Source of the DNA: Amoebophrya sp. A120
Lineage: Eukaryota > Protista > Dinoflagellata
Reading direction: 5' to 3'
Length of the DNA: 64,000 nt
Assembly (NCBI GenBank): GCA_905178155.1
Contig: CAJINV010000005.1
Coordinates: 6,435,207-6,499,206, forward strand
In this document: positions 28,236 through 44,693 of the stretch, piece after piece
Layout of the letters: every line of letters starts with the position of its first letter
How positions within the stretch are numbered: the stretch's first letter is position 1
Made by a program: the position numbers and the translations under genes
The notes under the pieces: model-generated
Told to the model about the DNA's origin: nothing
The model's database searches: none
What the model saw: only the letters and a program-made list of their open reading frames with translations

Positions 28236-31200
28236 TCATGCAGTCTTCTCGCACCCAGGTGCTGCGGCTCGTCTACCATGCATCCCCCGCAGTAGTTCGT
28301 CTACGTGTCGACTCAGTTGGCTCCCCGACAGAAGCTCGTCTTTCGCGCTTGAGTCATCTTCAAAAGGCCGCCCATTGTCTCCCTCAAAAAGGTCGGAGAT
28401 GCTGTCGAAGCAACTCAGCAAATTCCGCCCACGCGGTGGAAGCTGAAGTTCTTTTTGCTGTGGATAGTTATTTTCAACTTTTTTGCTAATAATTTTTCCG
28501 TCGCCGCTCGCAAAATGAATTTCCCGGCCCCCCTGTTGTCCCGCGTTTAATATTTCTGTCATTTCTGAAGATGTCGCCGGCTTTATTGCCTCTTGCGCCA
28601 AGTCTCCCTCTTTTGATCGGCCGCGAAGCCGCACCGGCTCATAACCTCTCCGCCCTGATAGACCGGCCCTTCGCGCGACCGGGCTTCGCGTCTGCGGCGT
28701 TTATCAAATGTAAAAGTGTCTGGGTCTGGAAGAGTCATGCTGTTTTTGCATGACACAGAAGGTCTGGCATGGAAGCTCTAGCATTACAGGTTTCGAGAAG
28801 CTTCCGCAATGCCGAATCCGCATGACAAATCCCCCACTTTGGTGACAGAAAGTGGGCAGCTTTTGCTACCCATGCATAAGAGATTTTTCTGTGTTCTGAA
28901 ATGTGCATCACAAGTTTGTATTCGTCCAGACCCAGACATTTTTACATTTGATAGCGTTCGTTGCGCGACGATTGGGTCGGAGTCGGCAAGAACCTTCTTC
29001 CCGGGCTCAACATCGCTGCGTTCGTTGGAACGACTGGCAGCATCTTCAACTAACCGGGTGGTTGTCTTGTCCGTTTTTCCCCCTCGCCTCCCCGAGTCTG
29101 TGGACCTTGGAGTGCCGCCACAAGAAGAGGAATTATTCCGGCGGAGGTTTGAGAACCCACCACCTCGTTCAGGATTTTTATCGCCTTCGCCTGCCGACGT
29201 AGTGGCCTTTTTACTGCCATTGCGCCGCCCCCGCATTTCTTCTCGACAGCGTGCACCAGGCTCACGAACTGGATGACGAGGACGCCGCCGGGGGGTCGTG
29301 AAGGCTTCCGACGTGGTCTCAGCTCGTGGTCCCCCTCTCGCTCGTGTTCTTCGCCCCGAGGGGGTCCCCTCTACTTCCGTGCCAATAGTCGCACCTCCTG
29401 CTACTTCTTCAGCACCTGCACGCGCTTTGCTCCTACTTTTCCCCTCAACAGGAGAAGGCGAGACTACGCATCGAGCAGCAATAAAATCACGAGCAGAGGA
29501 CTTGGTAGTTCTAGTGGATGTGGAGTTATTTCTAGAAGCCCGCTGCACTCGACGTCCGGCTTCCTTGTTTCTACCGAGCTGCGACGGAGTTCTTGTCCCT
29601 GAAGACGTGCAAAAACTTATCCCAGAGAAAAAAGCTGGCAGGGCACATTTGTAATGCAAAAATAAACACACAGAAACATTTGCTATGGGTGGCCCCATAG
29701 CATGCTGTTTCGGATATGCAATACAGATTATTTCTTTGTGTGTTTATTTTTGTACTACAAAGATACCCTGCCAGCTTTTTTCTGTGTGATAGAACTTGTC
29801 CGCTGCGAAAGTGTTTTCGACATCCTCAACACCGGTTCATCTTCACGATCCCCACAGGAATTATCAACTTCCAGGACTCCACGACCTCGCAGGCCAGGAT
29901 TCGGATTCAGGTATTTATTTTTCTTGTTCCACCTATGATCTCTCTTCTTCGTATCCAACGAGCCATTTTTGTTTCTCATCTTCGTATCATCATGCTGTGA
30001 TTGGATACTACTAGCAGTAGTAGCCACTTCTTCTTGCTCGATCCGCTTTTCCTGCAAAAACGAGCACATCTGCTCCACGTGCCGCAACTGCTTCTCCAAG
30101 CTGAACCGCAGATCCCGCTCCGTGGCCAGCTTCTCCTGCAGCTGCAAAACCTTTGCCTTCAACTGCAGAAAGACAGTTTTGGACGCCATTTTTGTTTGTG
30201 CATCCATAGAAGAAATCTCGCGTTGTTTATCCTCATCTGCGCGGACATATAATTCCCGAACAGCAGGAGCTCCAACTTCTACTGTTTCCTCATTTATTCT
30301 ACTTCTGCACCACGGCAGCAACTTTTCCTTTCCCCGCTCACTGGGAACTACAACTCTCGGCGCACCACCAACTGCTGGAACCATGCAGTTCCTGTTTCTC
30401 TCGTCCCCATTGCGACGGCCCTGGGCACCGAGAACCTCCGTCAGCTTTCCGTCCAGCGCGCGCAGCCCGCGGGCCTGGTGCCGAATTTTGCCCGCCTGCT
30501 GCTCGATCGTTTTTCGCTGGTCCCGAATCGTGACGCACTGCTGGTACAGCCGGCGGTACAAAGCCTTCCTTTCCACATCAATGGGTAGTCGACCACGTGC
30601 TTGTAGTTCTTGTTTCTCGCAGTAGTTCTTGATGTTGTTGTCCCTCGTCGTGCTGCTGGCCCCCACTGGTTCGTTTTGTTCAACAATGTCTTTCTCCAGC
30701 GGCCGCAAGGCAGAAGAGGAAGAGCCCGTACTACAACTTTGGGTGAAAGAACTGGAGCTACGAGCGTCCCGAGAGCTCGGTCGTGCTGGTTCCCGCGGAT
30801 TATAAACACGCTCCTCCGGCGGCCCGCCCACTAACTCGCGGTCCTGCTGCTGCTCGTCGTGTAGTGCCGCGGGCTGCGTAGTTGTGCCTTCGCCTGAAAT
30901 ATTTAATCGCCCATGATGCTGTTCTTTATCTGCTAGCTTCTGCGTCAGCGCTTTATTTTCCTCGGCCAACAGCACATTCCGCTCGTTCAGACGAAGGTTG
31001 CGCTCGTATCAAATGCAAATATGTCCCGGTCTGGAAGAATGCAGGTTTTCCATGACCCATGACGTCTTTCTAGAATGCAGCACTGAGCATGACAAATGCT
31101 GTGAGATCTCTCTCATGCCTATCCTGAATGAGAAACCTCCTGTCAACCTTGTCAGGAGCGGGCATCTTTTGGCAATCATGCAACAGAGATTTTTGCATGA

Positions 31201-37119: not shown

Positions 37120-38669
37120 CCCGGTCATCTACTTGTCAGCCAAGAAAGAAAAAAGTATGTTGTGGAAACCATTTTCATTGCTTAGATGCGGCGGCTCTCA
37201 ACCCAATTAGTATAATCGAGGAACCAGGTTTAAATCACAAATCTTACACTTACTCTATTGATTGATGCTAAAAAATGAGAAGACGATACAAATCTCACTC
37301 TATTGACAGACTGATGCTGCAATCATACTGATGCTTTTAAAAAGACGATACTAAACACAATATGAATATTAGTAGTAGCTTCGCTAAGTACTTCATAGAC
37401 ATCAACCGAAAGGAATCAAAGTGTCGCGAAAATTATCCTGGGGCAAAAACACAACCACGAAAACACAGAAGCAATTCCTCTACTACATAAAAACAGAACA
37501 TAATTCAGTGCACCTGAGTTTTGAATCTTTCCGAGTAAATCTTGGCAGGCGCATATCGATCGCATGAGGGGGCCAGCGTCTGTTCACGTAGTTTTCTGCG
37601 CGCCGACAAATGCACGCGTTTCGTTTACTGCTTCATCGAAGGTTTTTACTTATTAACATCAACCGCCCTCGCAGATCATGCGAACAGGAAGATTTTGATT
37701 TCGGCCGACGCGTGTGTAGTAAAATGCCGCTGAACTTGACGCTGTGTCGCCAGCACTCAGTGCCTGCTTGTGCTTCCTCGAACGAGGGTCGCCTTCTCGC
37801 ACGGCTTCCTCGGAATAGATCCAACCAAAGAAACAGAAAGCCCGGCACTATTTTGTAGATGACACTAGCTACATTTTTACGTGGCGGCTTTGGTGACGGT
37901 ACCACGCAACTTAATCAAAGAGGATCTCATCAACAAAGAGCCGATAGATCTAGTGCGGCTCAAATGACAGGCATCTTTCTTCGGAGTGCGCATGATCTTC
38001 AATCGAGGACAGATCAGAAGTTGTCCTCTGAACTATTCAACATTTTTTGTGCTACTACTCACTCCCGCCCAGATCTTACAAGGAATACATCTTCGTTATG
38101 AATTTAGCTACACAAAGCTCAAAAGCCCAAAAGCCCACTCTTTCGCGGCTGCCCGAGCCAGTAGAGCGGGCGCAAGGACGCAAAAGGCCGTCACTTGGTC
38201 AGGAACACAACTACGGCGCCACGGCCCTTCAAGTGGAAAACGAAATCAATGATCCTAGCAGCACAACAGCCGGACCAGCAGCACACTGCTTGATGTTACT
38301 AGTAGAAAAAGTTTCAGCTTCGGCCTAGAAACTTATAAATATTTCATACTGTGTGCCGTCTTGGCTGATAATTTTCGACAAGTGCTTTTCTACTTACAAC
38401 TACCCAACGAGCCACTGATGCCTGTTCTCTGTATCAGTAGCATTCGGTTTTACTCATTTTCCTATCCATAGGGCGAATACGAATCAAATAGTGCACTGTC
38501 TTTGATGTAATAGAGCGAATACGAATCGAATAGTGCGCTGTCTCTGATGAAGAGGTTTTTGTTTTTCGGGAGAAATAAAATAAGTATCACAGCTGTGGGG
38601 CGAGAGCTTTAATTAAGTGGAAAGGAACGGGCTCTATTATCCCTCTCGACGAAGCTGCAACGTAAACAA

Positions 38670-41600
38670 CTACGTGTCGACGAGTTTCTTGCGTGTCATG
38701 GGCCTAGTACTCACATCGTGTTTTTCACCCTGCTTTGACGTCGAGGTTGTAAATGTAGTCGTCTTCTTTCCGTTTGTATCCAAGAAAAAAACTGTGTTCG
38801 GGCAACTTTCATCTTTGGCTGACAGCATCACAAGTTTGCTCCACATGACAGAGAAAAGCTGTCATGCGTGGGTTGTAAATAAAAACACACATGAAAAGAG
38901 GACTTCATGGTCGTCTGGCATGAAGACAGGTGTAAGAACTCTGCTGGCGCAACATATTCTGCAGTACAAAGTTACACTTTATACACAGTTTTTTTCTTGC
39001 ATAGTTTGCTTGTCTTCGGGTTCGGCCCGCGGGGGGATTACTGTCCGACAAGAGGAGGAACGCGTTCGCTCTTGAAATCGCTGTTGCGGTAGTGGACGAC
39101 GAACTCGTTGTCGAAGTAGTCGTCGTATAGTAGGTATCAAATGCAAATATGTCTCGGAAAGGGTCGTGTAAACTTGTCATGCAGGTTTTCCATGACCCAT
39201 GAGGTCCGGACTGCGTGACCAAGCATGACAGACTCTGTGCGATCTCTGCCATGCCTATCCTGCATGAGAAACTTCCTCCCAAGAACTTGGTCGTGAGTGG
39301 ACAGCTTTTGGCACTCATGCAACACAGAATTTTGCATGGTTCGGATTTAGCATGACAAGTTGCAACCTTCGAGAGGACCTAGACATATTTGCAATGCATA
39401 GTAGGTTGGATTGAGGTTTCGCCACTGCGTTTCATTTATGTGGCCGTGGTATCAAATGCAAAAATGTCTGGGTCTGGAAGATTCTGACACTTGTCACGCA
39501 CGTTTTGCATGAGCCATGATGTCTGTGATGCATACCCTAGAAATAAAGATTTTTTGACGGCTTCTTGATACGTATTCCGCATGACAAATGCCTTCTCAGC
39601 GTAGCAAGAATTGCATTTCCTTTGGTACCCATGCAATACAGATTTTTTTGGAATCCAAATGCAGCATCACAAGTTCCGATTCTTCCAGATCCAGACATTT
39701 TTGCAATCCATACATGGTCGGAGCTGCAGTCACAGGTGCTGGTTCCGTCATCTCCGGGTTCGCATATCAAGTGCAAATATGTCTGGGTCTGGAAGAGGAC
39801 TGCTGGACTTGTCATGCAGGTTTTCCATGACCCATCTGCTCTGCAATGGAGGACCTAGCATGACAGATTCCACGAGATCCCTAGCATGCCTATCCTGCAT
39901 GAGAAACTGCGTCTCGACTTGACCAAAAGTGAGTAGCATTATGGTAATCATGCAACACAGATTTTTGCATGTGAATCGGTTCGAGAGTGTACCCCAGTTC
40001 ACGAACTAGTTCGTGAAGGTTCTGGGCATACGAAAAAGAGCAGAACCATACGTAGTGCACGTGCCAAACCCCGAAAAAAAGAGCGGGCAACGGGAGAAAA
40101 GAATCCCGATGAGCTACAGGGCATTTCTTGCGGGCACCATATGTCGCAAAAAGTATGTGCACGCAACAAGCCCCGAAAGATCTTGTATTTTGGCGCGCGC
40201 GCGCGCGATTTTGGTTTGTGAGGCGCGAAGCGCTGCGCGACTATTGTTTACGGTGGGACGGCTGCCGGCCATAGGATTTAGGGACGCTGCTTCCGATCAA
40301 TGGGCGCACGAAGACCGAAGCTGTCCGCGCGGCAATGGTTTCAAACAGAAAGCGGTCGAACGCTAGGGCCGATCGCAGTCATGGCTACTGTTTTCTGTAG
40401 TGACAGACTTGAGGCCTTTGGCGCCCATCACGGTGCGCGCAGCTGTGCTGCAGCACCATCTAAAACGACGGCGCTGCGGCATTGCAGGCACAGACCCGAA
40501 CCGGGGGTCAGGTAATACCTGGCCCCCCGGATCGACTAAGTACCACTGAGATCAGGAGCGTACCTTTGGGTCAGGAACGCCCCCCCTACTCCTTCCTCCA
40601 CCTGCATACTTTTTTGGCGCCGAGCATATCAAATGGCCTGTTTGTTCTAGGATATTTAGGCCCCGGGGCGGTATTGAACTGGTAGGTACATTGCTGAACC
40701 GCGGGCCCTGTTGAACTGATACACATGATTCAGATTTAGCATGACAAGTTGCAGAATCCCAGACCCAGACATAATTGCAATGCACATCGCAATTGCACAG
40801 GCAACTGGTCCGGCCCGTGCGCCCCGCGTTGGGATTGGCGCAGTCACAGGTAAAATATGCAAAGAAAAAAGTGTATACAGTTACACATTTGTATGTCAAT
40901 TCAGCAACACAAATTTATCTGCATGAGGAAGAAAACTTGTAATGCAGAAATCCTACGGGAAAACACCTATGAAACGTAAACGAGGCTGCTATGCATATCC
41001 GGCATGACAGAGCTTGTCTGTCTTGCTTGGCCTGCAACACAATGTGTAACTGTAGCACTGTTTTCTCGCGATATAAAACCAGAGCACCCCATTATTCCGA
41101 ACAGCAACACCAGGAATCCCAGGCACCCAAAAATCAAGTTACACCGCAGGTATATCAAATGCAAATGTGTCGTCTGGGTCTGGTGGAAGATTGATGCCAG
41201 GTTTGTCATGCATATCTTGCAGGGCGGCCCATGATGCCTGTATGTACATGCACATGCCCGAACATCATAGATTTTTGGAGGGCTTCCCGATGCCGATTCC
41301 GCATGACAAATGCCTTCCCCACGTAGCACAAACTGGACTCCTCTTGCTGGTCATGCAATACAATTTTTTTCACAATCCAAAAATAGCAACACTACAAGTT
41401 GCGACCTTCCAGAGGACCCAGACATATTTGCAGTGCGTAAGGGAACGGAAGTTGCAAAACGTGTTGTGCAGACAGAACTCCACCTGGGCCAGCTCTTCGC
41501 TATCAAATGCAAACACGTCTGGGTCTAGAAACTCGTGATGCTAATAAAGCATGGATGATTTTTATGGTGCTTTCAAGTGCAGCCAAGCATGACAATTTTA

Positions 41601-43438
41601 TTCGACGCCGTCGGATGCGTAGCACGCATGACAAACTCTGTCTGTGCATGACAAAACAGTAACGCCTTTGCTGGCTATGCAACGCAGAAGATTTTTCAGG
41701 AATTATGCTAGAAGAGATTGCAACAAAAATAAATCCTGTTTGTTTTCCTGAACCCAGACATATTTGCACTGGATATTCGTCTGAAGATATCGCAAGGAAA
41801 AATCCCCCCTCCCCATATTGACGAGGTAGCTTTTCGAAAATTTGCGTTGCTGATTTGTGACCACAAATCGCGTCTGTCGTGCAAGATGGCAAGTCCACCG
41901 GCTCCGCCGCATTATGCAGGCGGTTTGTCATGCTGCTGGGCCTACAGCACGGACGTTTGTCATGCTAAGCGTCTAGGTCAAAGCCTCTCTACTCAGGCTT
42001 GATATGGGTGTGCAGTCCTCTCCAGCAAGAAAACTCTGACCTGTGTACTCAAATCCAGCATCAGAAACTTCGTTTTGATATGGGGAGGGGGGATTTTTCC
42101 TTTTGATAGAAGACAGCGAATCCTCGACATCCCGGGCTTCTTCGTCCGCCCCCCGCTCCCAAGATTATCCAGTCCAAAAACGTCCCCAACACAGACTCAA
42201 ACTGGGAACTTGGCAACACAAGGCCAAAATTTTGGGAGTCACGCATGACAAGTTTCGCTCTGTATTGTATACAATGCAGTTTAGCAAGGACGGCCGCATC
42301 ACAAAACCATTTTCCTATGCTATTTACAGCATTACAAATTCCGAAACTACACGCCTGGAAATGCCTGCCATGGGGTCGGGGCGCATTACAAATGTTCCTG
42401 CTGTAATTACAAATCTGCACGACAACTCTGGACTCGGGACGTTCTTGCTCAGGATAAAGATTCCTCGTTCTTCTGCTGCTGCCTCTCTTCCCGGAAAAAC
42501 TCATCTACGTCGTTATGGCTTGCTCAGATGCTCGATACAATCTTCTCCTCAATCGTTTCAGTTGAGACCCGATTTTGTCTTGCATAAACAGCATAACTAG
42601 CATACAAGGCCTTGCACTTTTTGCAATACAGATTTCGCCAGATAATTTCAGTGTGGTTTGAACTCCGCAACTTGTCATGCGCAATCCTGTGAGAGTTCTT
42701 CGAGTTGGCTAGGTAAAACAAAATCCACTTTTTGCATCACAGATTTATTTCCATTTCTACTGCAAGAACGGTTGAAAAATTGTATTACGTCTGAGCTGCA
42801 GGTCATAGTCTTTCTTCTTGAAGTATCCTGTGCAAAAGTATCGCACTCGTAATAATTGCAATCATGCAAATTTTTTGCTGAAGCTAAATCCGCATTACAA
42901 ATTTATTTCTCAAAGAAATTTGTAATGCATTTATACGAGTACGATACTTTTGCAATGCATATGAACCCCCGGGCTGCTTCGATCCTCTGGGCGGCGGTAG
43001 TCTGGTAGATGCTCGGTTGCGTGCTCCGCTATCAACTGCAAATGTGTCTGGGTCAGGGAACTTGTGATGCTGCTTGGCGAATCATGAGGAAGCCACAAAT
43101 GACGGCTCAGCTTGACAAGTTTCTGAGTTGCTAGGTGTTCTTGTCTATCCAGCATGACAAACTGCGTTTTTGCATGACATAAAGCTGTCGCTTTAGCTTT
43201 TGGGTAACGTGCATGACAGACTTAAGAGTCATGCTAGCCAAGCAAGACAGACTTGCATTCTTCCAGACCCAGACATTTTTGTAGTGCATATCCGCTGCGT
43301 CTGGTTTATAATTCCGCGGCCTGGCTGCCCGCCCTGTACCTGCGGTTCCACCAACAGTCCGCGCGAGCGAGCGGGCATGCTCGTTGGTTCTTGGCCAAGT
43401 AGTCGCTCTGTAGTTGCTTGCGCATCTATTTCCCCCAT
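38670..43438 (-). CDS. Hypothetical 281-aa single-pass membrane protein with Cys-rich and Thr/Ser-rich segments; 13 exons, 12 introners
   Basis: All 12 junctions translate in frame; TM LIFGCLGFLVLLFGIMGCSGF then TCDCANPNAGRTGRTSCLCNCEPGDDGTSTCDC. Confidence 0.8.
38777..39003. mobile_element. Introner family K (TIR TATSCAAGAAAAAAACTGTGT)
   Basis: TIRs; DR GTTTG/GTTTG. Confidence 0.9.
39135..39400. mobile_element. Introner family A
   Basis: TIRs; DR GTAGG/GTAGG. Confidence 0.9.
39450..39712. mobile_element. Introner family A
   Basis: TIRs; DR CGTGG/CATGG. Confidence 0.9.
39765..40786. mobile_element. Introner family A carrying a nested element
   Basis: DR TCGCA/TCGCA; 266 bp remain after removing the insert and its TSD. 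Confidence 0.9.
39972..40723. mobile_element. Nested non-autonomous TIR element (TG...CA, 4-bp TSD CATG)
   Basis: TIR TGAATCGGTTCGA / TTGAACTGATACA; CATG on both sides. Confidence 0.85.
40856..41073. mobile_element. Introner family G (TIR ~TAT...AGAAAAAAGTG.TACAGTTACACA)
   Basis: TIRs; DR TAAAA/TAAAA; similar to 51567-51780. Confidence 0.9.
41153..41439. mobile_element. Introner family A
   Basis: TIRs; DR AGGTA/AGGGA. Confidence 0.88.
41501..41775. mobile_element. Introner family A
   Basis: TIRs; DR TTCGC/TTCGT. Confidence 0.88.
41788..42108. mobile_element. Introner family D (TIR ~TATC..AAGGAAAAATCCCCCCTCCCCATAT)
   Basis: TIRs; DR GAAGA/GAAGA. Confidence 0.92.
42166..42456. mobile_element. 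Introner family E, inverted relative to 9320 and 31423 copies
   Basis: TIRs; DR AAGAT/AAGAT. Confidence 0.9.
42514..42807. mobile_element. Introner family L (TIR ~TATGACCTGC..CTCAG)
   Basis: TIRs; DR GTCGT/GTCTT. Confidence 0.85.
42824..42961. mobile_element. Introner family B
   Basis: TIRs; DR TGAAG/TGAAC. Confidence 0.88.
43030..43290. mobile_element. Introner family A
   Basis: TIRs; DR TCCGC/TCCGC; similar to 828-1083. Confidence 0.92.
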
Positions 43439-44693
43439 CACTTGTATCCTTCACAACTACCGATAGAGGGTATCGCAGTACGTAGCCATCATGCTATGTC
43501 TTCACCGGATCGGCATGAAAATACTGATGAAAAAGGCATAGTAAAACTAAAAACCCAAGAAGTGACCCAGTTTGTTTCTCTTCGGTTTTGCTTTTCCTTT
43601 TCATCCAAAAAGAAAAATGCTACAAGGAAATAAATAAAACCCGGCGACAGCACTGGATCATGAATACTACGTTATCACCTCCTGCTCCTGCTAGAGAATC
43701 ATCATAATCACACCGCAGGAGCGGCACCAGCGATAAAATCCGTCACAAAATAACTTTCCCTATTTATGTCGTTACAGCTTTGCACAGCAGGTGCGAGTCA
43801 TTCATTTCACTTGTATTTCTCCGCCCTACTCGTACATCTACCAGGGCGGTTCTACATAGGGTACTTACTCACTTCTATTTTCGCCTGCAGCACTTCGATT
43901 ACAGCAGCAGCATAAGCAAACTATGCTCAAAACAAACATCTTCATCATGCCGCACGACATCACAACAATGCCGATGTACTACCTAGGTAAAAAGTAGCGA
44001 GTTATATATACCAAGATTCCGAATCGAAGATGATCCGAAGATCACATGATAGTTCGTGCTGTTCCACACCGAAATTTGTGTTCCACTAGAACATGATCAC
44101 CGACGAGAGGTGGGATTGGGAAGTACTTACCTCCATCGTTGGGAACCACCATACTTCTACACTCTTTCTTCTGTGCAGGACCTACCGACATGATGTTGAT
44201 CACCAGCGCGATGCGCTTTCCGAATCCGAAAATGAATCATGAGAGCACGGCAGTAGTTCAGATGCTTGCTAGAAAGCAAAAATGTTGATCCAGGAATGAT
44301 AAAATGACCGACTGAGCATTCTTGTATTGTTCAACAGCAGTCGTTGTTGACCGATTCATGTTCCGCCTTGATGCGCGGGAAAAAGAAGAAGAGTGTTCCT
44401 GACTTGTTTTTATACTTTTCTTTCTTCTTCTCTACAGACCTCCATCGTGTTGTACAGTGTGAATCACGTAGCAGCTGGGTACTAGAAGTCGTTTTATTCT
44501 TATTCATTGGCCACGGCCTACTTAGTAAAACTATGCTGTTCTTGTTTATCACTCTTTAATATTTTCACTTTTCACACGACAGCTGCCAACCCCACCCACT
44601 GCTGATCCCCACAAGAACTCTCGTCGTGCGTCCCCGGTTACGAATTTGAGGCCGTTCCGCCCGGAAGATTCGGATTGGTCACGCTCTCCGCTA

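Follow-up and report, generated by a model that had tools for sequence, protein, structure and literature searches.

The gene and its elements

On the minus strand of the window, by which we mean the whole 64-kb stretch of Amoebophrya sp. A120 DNA that was analysed, lies an open frame of 281 codons (846 nt) with its ATG at 43438 and a stop codon ending at 38670. The frame is obtained when 12 terminal-inverted-repeat elements are removed together with 5 nt each, which leaves 13 exons within 4.8 kb (Table 1); of nine uniform trims from 0 to 8 nt, only a trim of 5 nt gave a single stop at the frame end. Introns make up 82.3% of the gene and the elements alone 81.0%. The joined frame is identical to the annotated A120 protein P0001 in 281/281 residues (database comparison), an agreement that is maybe not independent of the transcript-type contigs X1, X2 and X4 described below, as these are possibly the data behind the annotation. 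Two genes of the window have 100% matches to A120 proteins. The element coordinates, the frame and the blastn grouping agree with the original prediction of 12 elements from seven families in 846 nt of coding sequence, the gene being 82% introner, and the predicted gaps of 12 nt (41776-41787) and 16 nt (42808-42823) correspond to net exons of 7 and 11 nt. The presence of a 12-element gene with two micro-exons is thus confirmed; the gene model and the class of element were already known and are not new.

Table 1. Features of the 12-element gene in window coordinates. Exon borders follow the inferred cut register and may be shifted inside the 5-nt repeat.
Feature	Position	Strand	Remarks
Exon 1, coding part, 147 nt	43292..43438	-	From ATG 43438; in-frame stop 5 codons upstream; joint 43024->43291 in X1, X2, X4
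Element 1, family A, 261 nt	43030..43290	-	Perfect 5-nt repeat
Exon 2, 63 nt	42963..43025	-	
Element 2, 138 nt	42824..42961	-	Imperfect repeat; first out in inferred intermediate
Exon 3, 11-nt micro-exon	42809..42819	-	8 letters between sides of joint 42511->42962; depth X1 144.6, X2 93.5
Element 3, 294 nt	42514..42807	-	Weakest arms; imperfect repeat; kept alone in minor X1 contig, depth 6.91
Exon 4, 52 nt	42458..42509	-	
Element 4, 291 nt	42166..42456	-	
Exon 5, 52 nt	42110..42161	-	
Element 5, 321 nt	41788..42108	-	Strongest arms; first out in inferred X1 intermediate; kept with element 6 in X2 contig
Exon 6, 7-nt micro-exon	41777..41783	-	3 letters between sides of joint 41499->42109; depth X1 122.5, X2 93.5, X4 6.3
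Element 6, family A, 275 nt	41501..41775	-	Imperfect repeat; kept in minor contigs, depth X1 9.27, X2 10.3
Exon 7, 56 nt	41441..41496	-	
Element 7, family A, 287 nt	41153..41439	-	Imperfect repeat
Exon 8, 74 nt	41075..41148	-	Codes for most of the predicted membrane helix
Element 8, 218 nt	40856..41073	-	
Exon 9, 64 nt	40788..40851	-	
Element 9, family A, 1022 nt with nested insert	39765..40786	-	Skipped whole as 1027-nt piece
Nested 752-nt element in element 9	39972..40723	.	TG...CA inverted ends; between CATG copies 39968-39971 and 40724-40727; joint 39967->40724
Exon 10, 47 nt	39714..39760	-	
Element 10, family A, 263 nt	39450..39712	-	Repeat mismatch allows only 0 or 1 nt between cut and 5' arm; joint 39444->39713, 1 letter fits both sides
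Exon 11, 44 nt	39402..39445	-	
Element 11, family A, 266 nt	39135..39400	-	
Exon 12, 126 nt	39005..39130	-	Thr/Ser-rich stretch
Element 12, 227 nt	38777..39003	-	
Exon 13, coding part, 103 nt	38670..38772	-	Stop codon at end; X1 contig continues to 38363

The protein is an orphan for which no homolog was found (7948 candidates, 1.84 billion representatives searched). In Pfam only DUF908 appeared, with an E-value of 0.1 that lies below the cut-off, and in the Atlas comparison there was no feature match (TM-by-query ≤0.25; pTM of the model 0.14). A single-pass membrane protein is predicted, its outer part being first Cys-rich and then Thr/Ser-rich.

All 12 elements have inverted ends of the TAT type and a direct repeat of 5 nt, which is perfect in seven and has one mismatch in five. 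TAT starts 22 of the 24 arms, and the ungapped arms match in 13-19 of 20 nt in 11 elements and in only 9 in element 3. Six copies were joined by blastn as family A, with no family-level link among the other six. Relatives elsewhere in the 64-kb window were found for five of these six and hence for 11/12 elements overall; element 12 has no relative within that window, to which the search was confined. A looser scan gave 39 elements in the window compared with 0, 0 and 3 in three shuffles, and introners account for 19% of the window. None of 72 placements has GT-AG borders on the coding strand, and the introns do not match a U2-type GT/GC donor with an AG acceptor. With TIRs, a target duplication and no apparent transposase, the elements have the features of MITEs (non-autonomous TIR DNA transposons); the Pfam scan of element sequence covered two frames in the nested 752-nt insert and gave no match, and Rfam gave none in 38000-44200.

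The elements are the published introners of A120, described by Farhat et al. 2021 (PMC7789003) as non-GT-AG introns with TIRs starting from TAT and 3-5-nt direct repeats, of about 250 nt, falling into many families, making up 17% of the assembly and enriched in poorly conserved genes. Contig joints, non-GT-AG borders, TAT TIRs (8-20 nt), a 3-5-nt repeat and the A120 host were all found for the 12 elements, and membership in repeat families for 11 of them within the window. The difference is one of degree: this gene has about ten times the 1.42 introns per kb of coding sequence given in that paper. According to Gozashti 2025 (PMC12130899), a single A120 gene can hold tens of introner introns. 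The elements would have been inserted as DNA transposons of the non-autonomous type, each duplicating 5 nt of its target, and would have accumulated in a weakly constrained orphan gene.

That the micro-exons are too close for chance was considered and rejected. If 12 insertions fall at random in 846 nt, the chance of at least two exons of ≤11 nt is P=0.53, and the earlier claim that the spacing itself is surprising is not supported. The odd features are the element density and the absence of exons of 12-43 nt, not the micro-exons themselves. An argument that had been built on nucleosome linkers is weak either way: a linker bias would permit two insertions per linker, and Amoebophrya carries DVNP genes (bioRxiv 2024.02.09.579734), so that any nucleosome phasing would be hypothetical.

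Inclusion of all exons in transcript-type contigs

Eight of ten runs were compared (X3 and X6 were left out). X1, X2 and X4 consist of contigs from probable RNA runs of a single study, X1 and X2 sharing one sample; their RNA status is a guess, the label being 'RNA? (a guess: may be DNA)'. In X1, ten joints at a depth of 114-177 cover all 12 elements, and X2 with five joints and X4 with three replicate this in part; the joints at 42160 and 42511 are missing in X4, where the depth is 4-6 (low cover). The GT..AG labels on the joints belong to the non-coding strand and were disregarded, and rare forms are lost from contigs. These joints support the mRNA of 13 exons, both micro-exons included, that was originally predicted. 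Among the RNA runs compared as raw reads, X8 gave 100 partial reads, every one of them in a bin that lies over a repeat element, X9 gave two and X10 none. X7 covered 17/30 bins in short pieces, and its zeros were left out as a control.

The guessed RNA labels would also allow the joined contigs to derive from an intronless DNA copy (a retrogene or allele), the locus being a dead, element-riddled copy. This is extremely improbable and largely refuted by the DNA-like X5, which has none of five spliced joints and an even depth over introns and exons, and which includes an unspliced 763-nt contig (42086-42848) with no other letters. Part-spliced forms are present, moreover, and the 846-nt frame is intact at the locus, with no differences from the contigs in the listed exon pieces.

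Position of the cut

In 5/5 imperfect repeats the contig joints keep the transcript-upstream repeat copy at the mismatch. The register is bounded from above by one RNA joint (39444->39713) and from below by one annotated residue, in the neighbouring protein P0002, which requires a shift of at least 1 nt; among nine imperfect-repeat elements outside the gene, one gives an open frame with a register-informative residue change. The cut likely precedes the 5' arm by 1 nt and follows the 3' arm at a distance of 4 nt. The first T of the arm would then become intron position +2, and the target would be restored exactly. In this register 0/12 introns end in AG; read by eye, 10/12 start with N-T-A-T, the 3' spacer being 4 nt. 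Table S4 of Farhat has T at +2 in 9/9 predominant A120 splice pairs, which might reflect aligner bias. A window-wide orientation bias of G at arm position 4 did not hold (11 vs 5, P=0.21); inside the gene the 5' arm is favoured 7 vs 1, outside it is 4 vs 4.

Order of removal

Two minor X1 contigs, identified from length and geometry, bear on the order in which the elements are removed. Record 5 (336 nt from 41470) has the predicted length and start for element 6 alone being kept, and record 6 (356 nt from 42482) those for element 3 alone. At the 7-nt and the 11-nt exon, respectively, the reverse form is predicted at 381 and 199 nt and the form with both elements kept at 669 and 510 nt. Among the X1 contigs listed, these are the only two whole-element retentions, and they concern precisely the elements directly behind the micro-exons (1/66 possible pairs; post hoc). 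The single-element-retained contigs support the earlier claim that each element is excised on its own.

We assume, with a probability of roughly 0.65, that the gene has 13 exons interrupted by inverted-repeat introners without GT-AG ends and that these are removed one at a time, upstream first, each likely defined by its cognate terminal stem. A micro-exon would be joined to the preceding exon before the next cut is made, and an element that follows a 7- or 11-nt exon would be seen retained because it would wait until its upstream neighbour is gone. It is rather unlikely that the elements are excised singly in no fixed order, or nearly together, and that the two single-retained contigs are branches kept by the assembler. 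Just two intermediates were observed, and X2, from the same sample as X1, has a contig (record 2, 41470-41821, depth 10.3) that keeps elements 5 and 6 both at the 7-nt exon and is thus not the intermediate, while no X2 contig shows retention at the 11-nt exon. Single-removed intermediates are very rare for Euglena nonconventional introns (PMC6221363), and most SRRM4-dependent microexons of humans lose the downstream intron first (PMC10250204). However, the polarity is the same in both intermediates, and the confinement of whole-element retention in the listed X1 contigs to the positions behind micro-exons, even if noticed post hoc, argues for an order. Intermediates of the reverse order may be among the rare forms that contigs lose.

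Local pairing of the arms

When each intron is folded alone its own arms pair, with 14-24 expected pairs in 25 nt, whereas only 6/12 cognate stems survive when the 4.8-kb pre-mRNA is folded as a whole. Across the two micro-exons, which are both flanked by different families, the arms reach -6.4 and -10.6 kcal/mol compared with -49.6 and -35.6 kcal/mol for the cognate pairs; there is no cross-pairing. The situation differs within family A, where duplexes of non-cognate arms (-17.4 to -39.6 kcal/mol) equal those of cognate arms (-20.8 to -37.9 kcal/mol) in stability, where the exons between adjacent copies measure only 44-56 nt, and where the global fold pairs the element at 43030 with that at 39765 (skip geometry) and the element at 41501 with that at 41153 (circle geometry). 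The six same-orientation copies might accordingly be expected to turn an appreciable fraction of the transcripts into exon-skipped mRNA or exon circles. We regard this as improbable: no non-adjacent or back-going exon joint is present among the rows listed (15/39 and 15/19), the weakest listed row of the X1 comparison having a depth of about 25 compared with 114-177, and the rows that go back lie within elements and have foreign letters in between. Skipped or circular forms could escape notice through poly(A) selection, through decay of products with a shifted frame or through assembly. The earlier idea of cross-pairing thus stands in so far as family A arms are able to pair in silico, but the skipped or back-spliced products are not among the listed joints. 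In the favoured explanation, the stem would fold during RNA synthesis, so that cognate arms would be paired before downstream same-family arms exist.

Possible catalysts

Farhat 2021 states as open how tens of thousands of non-GT-AG introns are removed in A120 without detected U1; U2, U4, U5 and U6 were detected, nearly all spliceosomal proteins are retained, and in the sections consulted the intron border is called 'unknown' and micro-exons and removal order are not treated (PMC7789003). Should ordered, stem-defined removal hold, the catalyst would on balance most likely be an altered U2/U6 spliceosome that works without U1. Removal might instead be non-spliceosomal, with a structure-measuring nuclease and a ligase cutting beside the stem and releasing linear or full-circle introns, as proposed for the nonconventional introns of euglenids. 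This doubtful alternative would fit the complete lack of GT-AG placements and, in the inferred register, of terminal AG, and the fixed offset from the stem (short 5', long 3') parallels the 3-nt and 5-nt spacers of Euglena (PMC12501133). The kept spliceosomal proteins and snRNAs speak against it, though canonical introns would explain them. The invariant T at +2 and the TAT[GC] start, which we take to resemble a spliceosomal donor, likewise count against a nuclease and ligase.

A bolder reading, which we regard as less likely than not, is a U1-free stem-measuring route with one geometry for all families (1 nt / 4 nt) that would run strictly 5' to 3' on nascent RNA and would need an upstream exon of more than about 30-35 nt. 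If this is true, a structural splicing code resembling that of Euglena would have originated a second time, independently; the stalling of elements after the 7- and 11-nt exons and the rarity of exons of 12-35 nt would both be accounted for.

Relation to known systems

Euglenid nonconventional introns (PMC12501133, PMC6221363, PMC11282704) share paired ends, the lack of GT-AG, target-duplication-like repeats and a longer 3' spacer with the elements described here, and excised circular introns have been reported for them. Their code, N3-CDG...CHG-N5-6 followed by a purine, contrasts with the long TAT...ATA arms and 1-nt/4-nt offsets of A120, an unrelated lineage; by eye, the intron ends do not match the euglenid signature. 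The spliceosomal introners known from Aureococcus, Micromonas and Polarella (PMC9860276, bioRxiv 2020.10.14.339549) are likewise non-autonomous, DNA-transposon-like and intron-creating, with target duplications, but they obtain canonical or GH-AG sites from the element or the duplication, for which the A120 elements have no need.

The gene is a natural substrate for studying the splicing mechanism: its five imperfect repeats report the cut position, the two micro-exons between unrelated families report removal order and exon-length needs, and the six same-family copies probe local pairing versus cross-pairing. In data that are already public, the present comparison finds initial signs of a fixed register and of removal that begins with the upstream element. 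Micro-exons are also known from animals and from the dinoflagellate Amphidinium carterae, in which exons go down to 3 nt (PMC10250204, PMC12584245); these, too, are too short for recognition of both ends at once, and ordered removal of the flanking introns has been invoked for them. Contrary to these, the micro-exons of A120 appear as by-products of two close insertions; they are part of the main isoform, their skipping shifts the frame, and they are accompanied by intermediates of the upstream-first type.

Structure and product of the gene

The structure of the gene, with its 12 elements and two micro-exons, is real, and its value is that of a test substrate that offers preliminary evidence for an upstream-first excision of the elements and for a fixed cut register. 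All 12 elements, located by sequence inspection and repeat scans of the window and named here by their window start, are flanked by 5-nt direct repeats (seven perfect, five with a single mismatch), and the inverted arms begin with TAT in 22 of 24 cases. Excision of each element together with 5 nt leaves 846 nt that are read on the minus strand as 281 codons and a stop; among trims of 0 to 8 nt, that of 5 nt alone restores this frame. Introns make up 82.3% of the gene span and the longest coding exon comprises 49 codons. According to blastn, six elements belong to family A and the other six are each separate (five of these have relatives elsewhere in the 64-kb window). Repeat scans, family grouping and the restored frame thus bear out the original prediction of 12 elements from seven families in an 846-nt CDS, and the gene is indeed essentially invisible in the ORF track, as the ORF list of the window holds no trace of it as a whole. 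Our scans counted 47 introner-type elements in the window, 19% of its length. The minus strand carries the longest open frames of the window (1–64000), in keeping with the co-oriented gene blocks that have been described in the genus.

Features of the locus and its surroundings (window positions)
Feature	Position	Strand	Remarks
Gene	38670–43438	minus	13 exons; ATG at 43438, stop ending at 38670
Elements	38777–43290		n = 12
Family A copies in the gene	39135, 39450, 39765, 41153, 41501, 43030		all in one orientation (39135–43290)
Family A copies outside the gene	34066, 53296		alignment reversed relative to in-gene copies
Exon 3	between elements 42824 and 42514		11 nt
Exon 6	between elements 41788 and 41501		7 nt
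X1 record 5	41470–41782		336 nt, depth 9.27
X1 record 6	42482–42822		356 nt, depth 6.91
GCATGAC-like motif	39135–43290		within elements of several families; 22-nt word, 11 copies
Nested element	39968–40727		752 nt, TG...CA inverted ends, two flanking CATG copies; inside family A copy 39765–40786
Tandem copies	38468–38549		two of 40 nt, 90% alike, spacing 42; under 3' end of X1 contig
Upstream part of X1 contig	43439–43800		at least 360 nt upstream of ATG
P0002 gene	28239–30578	minus	orphan-like protein, 617 aa, two elements
Short gap in P0002 gene	near 30478–30527		about 50 nt, not an element

The first exon retrieved a single protein, P0001, which is 281 aa long and recorded for Amoebophrya sp. 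A120 as an unnamed product; it equals the gene model in 281 of 281 residues provided that the transcript-upstream repeat copy is retained. The gene is already annotated, and its elements are of a published kind. Homology and domain searches found neither homologs nor domains. The protein features a single hydrophobic segment, whose best window of 19 residues begins at residue 134 (mean 2.37). It contains 12 cysteines in total, eight of them within 151–187, and after these a Thr/Ser-rich stretch; from this combination a single-pass surface protein is likely.

According to Farhat et al. 2021 (PMC7789003), the introner elements of A120 have arms beginning with TAT and direct repeats of 3–5 nt, account for 17% of the assembly and are found preferentially in genes of poor conservation; in some genes, introners have given rise to tens of introns (Gozashti 2025, PMC12130899). 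The present elements belong to this class by every feature that could be tested. Nonconventional introns of Euglena are alike in geometry (PMC12501133, PMC6221363, review PMC11282704), but their signature, as described there, is absent here. Polarella introners have GH-AG splice sites (bioRxiv 2020.10.14.339549), and canonical introns and U1 are described for a different Amoebophrya strain (PMC12005148). No placement tested for the 12 elements gave GT-AG borders. The recurrent GCATGAC-like motif might serve these families in common as a signal for a transposase or for splicing.

Spacing and density of the elements

The original prediction took the micro-exon spacing itself to be telling. This was not borne out: when 12 insertions are placed at random over 846 nt, at least two of the internal exons measure at most 11 nt with P = 0.53, and the shortest exon at most 7 nt with P = 0.71, so that the micro-exons require no special cause. 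Micro-exons as short as 3 nt are reported for Amphidinium (PMC12584245). An argument from nucleosome phasing can be made in neither direction, since DVNP genes are present in Amoebophrya (bioRxiv 2024.02.09.579734); linker-biased insertion is reported for many introners (PMC9860276). The element density of the gene is improbable under a uniform rate (P = 6e-9 to 2e-7) and presumably means that the gene, an orphan, is weakly constrained; a local insertion bias may contribute. Eight of the 11 internal exons measure 44–74 nt and none 12–43 nt (P 0.005–0.03, post hoc); outside the gene, the nine net inter-element gaps below 200 nt in the window range from 36 to 162 nt. In the gene and the window as a whole, the lengths of exons bounded by neighbouring elements cluster at 36–74 nt, with none of 12–35 nt, a hint possibly of a minimum exon length or of local insertion spacing.

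Transcripts and cut position

Ten sequencing runs are listed, eight of which were compared with the locus; no run that contains the locus is recorded as RNA. All transcript evidence comes from one study, possibly the data underlying the annotation. In contigs of X1, guessed to be an RNA run, ten joints (depth 114–177) together skip all 12 elements, and in two of them the extra letters are the unique cores of exon 6 (7 nt) and exon 3 (11 nt). X2, from the same sample, repeats all five joints within 41075–43440, four at one depth (93.5), with coordinates compatible with one 811-nt contig. X4, from a different sample, has three joints, that of the 7-nt exon among them. X5, taken for a DNA run on account of its size and even depth, lacks all five spliced joints within 41075–43440 and contains a 763-nt unspliced contig. 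By the look of the contigs the gene is expressed. The joints place both micro-exons (X1 and X2) or the 7-nt one (X4) in the predicted order; as contigs are graph paths, they do not phase all 13 exons of the predicted mRNA within one molecule. In the upstream part of the X1 contig, a short in-frame upstream ORF opens with two Met and ends just ahead of in-frame stops before the start.

The joined contigs carry the transcript-upstream copy at the mismatch of each of the five imperfect repeats. The repeat at 39450 limits the cut to the first T of the arm or the position 1 nt ahead of it, and in a neighbouring gene the annotated product P0002 contains a residue that calls for a shift of 1 nt or more. 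Provided that a single register applies, introns would start N-T-A-T and end 4 nt past the 3' arm; two sites are informative here, with a possible shared aligner bias.

Order of element removal

Two minor X1 contigs, records 5 and 6, show no differences to the window and each have an unaligned tail. Branch lengths for each isoform were computed assuming 31-letter words: retention of only 41501–41775 gives 336 nt from 41470, and of only 42514–42807 gives 356 nt from 42482, precisely as in records 5 and 6. For the opposite order the values would be 381 and 199 nt, and for retention of both elements 669 and 510 nt. These lengths suggest that at both micro-exons the upstream element had been removed and the micro-exon joined upstream while the downstream element was still present. 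Against upstream-first excision, X2 retains both elements at the 7-nt exon (depth 8–10) and has no coverage inside 42514–42807 at the 11-nt exon; contigs also lose rare forms. In X2 the bins inside elements 41153, 42166, 42514 and 43030 are empty, so that retention in this run is confined to the pair flanking the 7-nt exon. Ordered splicing of flanking introns is known for human micro-exons (PMC10250204); the literature searched, which covers few subscription journals, yielded no report that deals with Amoebophrya micro-exons or with the order of splicing in this genus.

Every intron folded alone forms its own terminal stem. In silico, arms of family A pair with those of other copies no less well than with their own. 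Exon-skipping or back-splice joints were absent among the rows listed (15 of 39 for X1, 15 of 19 for X2), though rare products of this kind may occur. Each micro-exon lies between elements of different families, whose arms do not cross-pair. A global fold of the 4.8-kb pre-mRNA, unreliable at that length, kept six of 12 cognate stems. Folding during transcription would lock each cognate stem first, which fits upstream-first intermediates.

Nested insert

The nested 752-nt element has no second copy within the window, and two of its frames gave no Pfam match. In X1 a second copy, 693 nt long and with 23 differences, extends 29 nt into the same family A flank; the composite of family A copy and insert may thus have multiplied as one unit.
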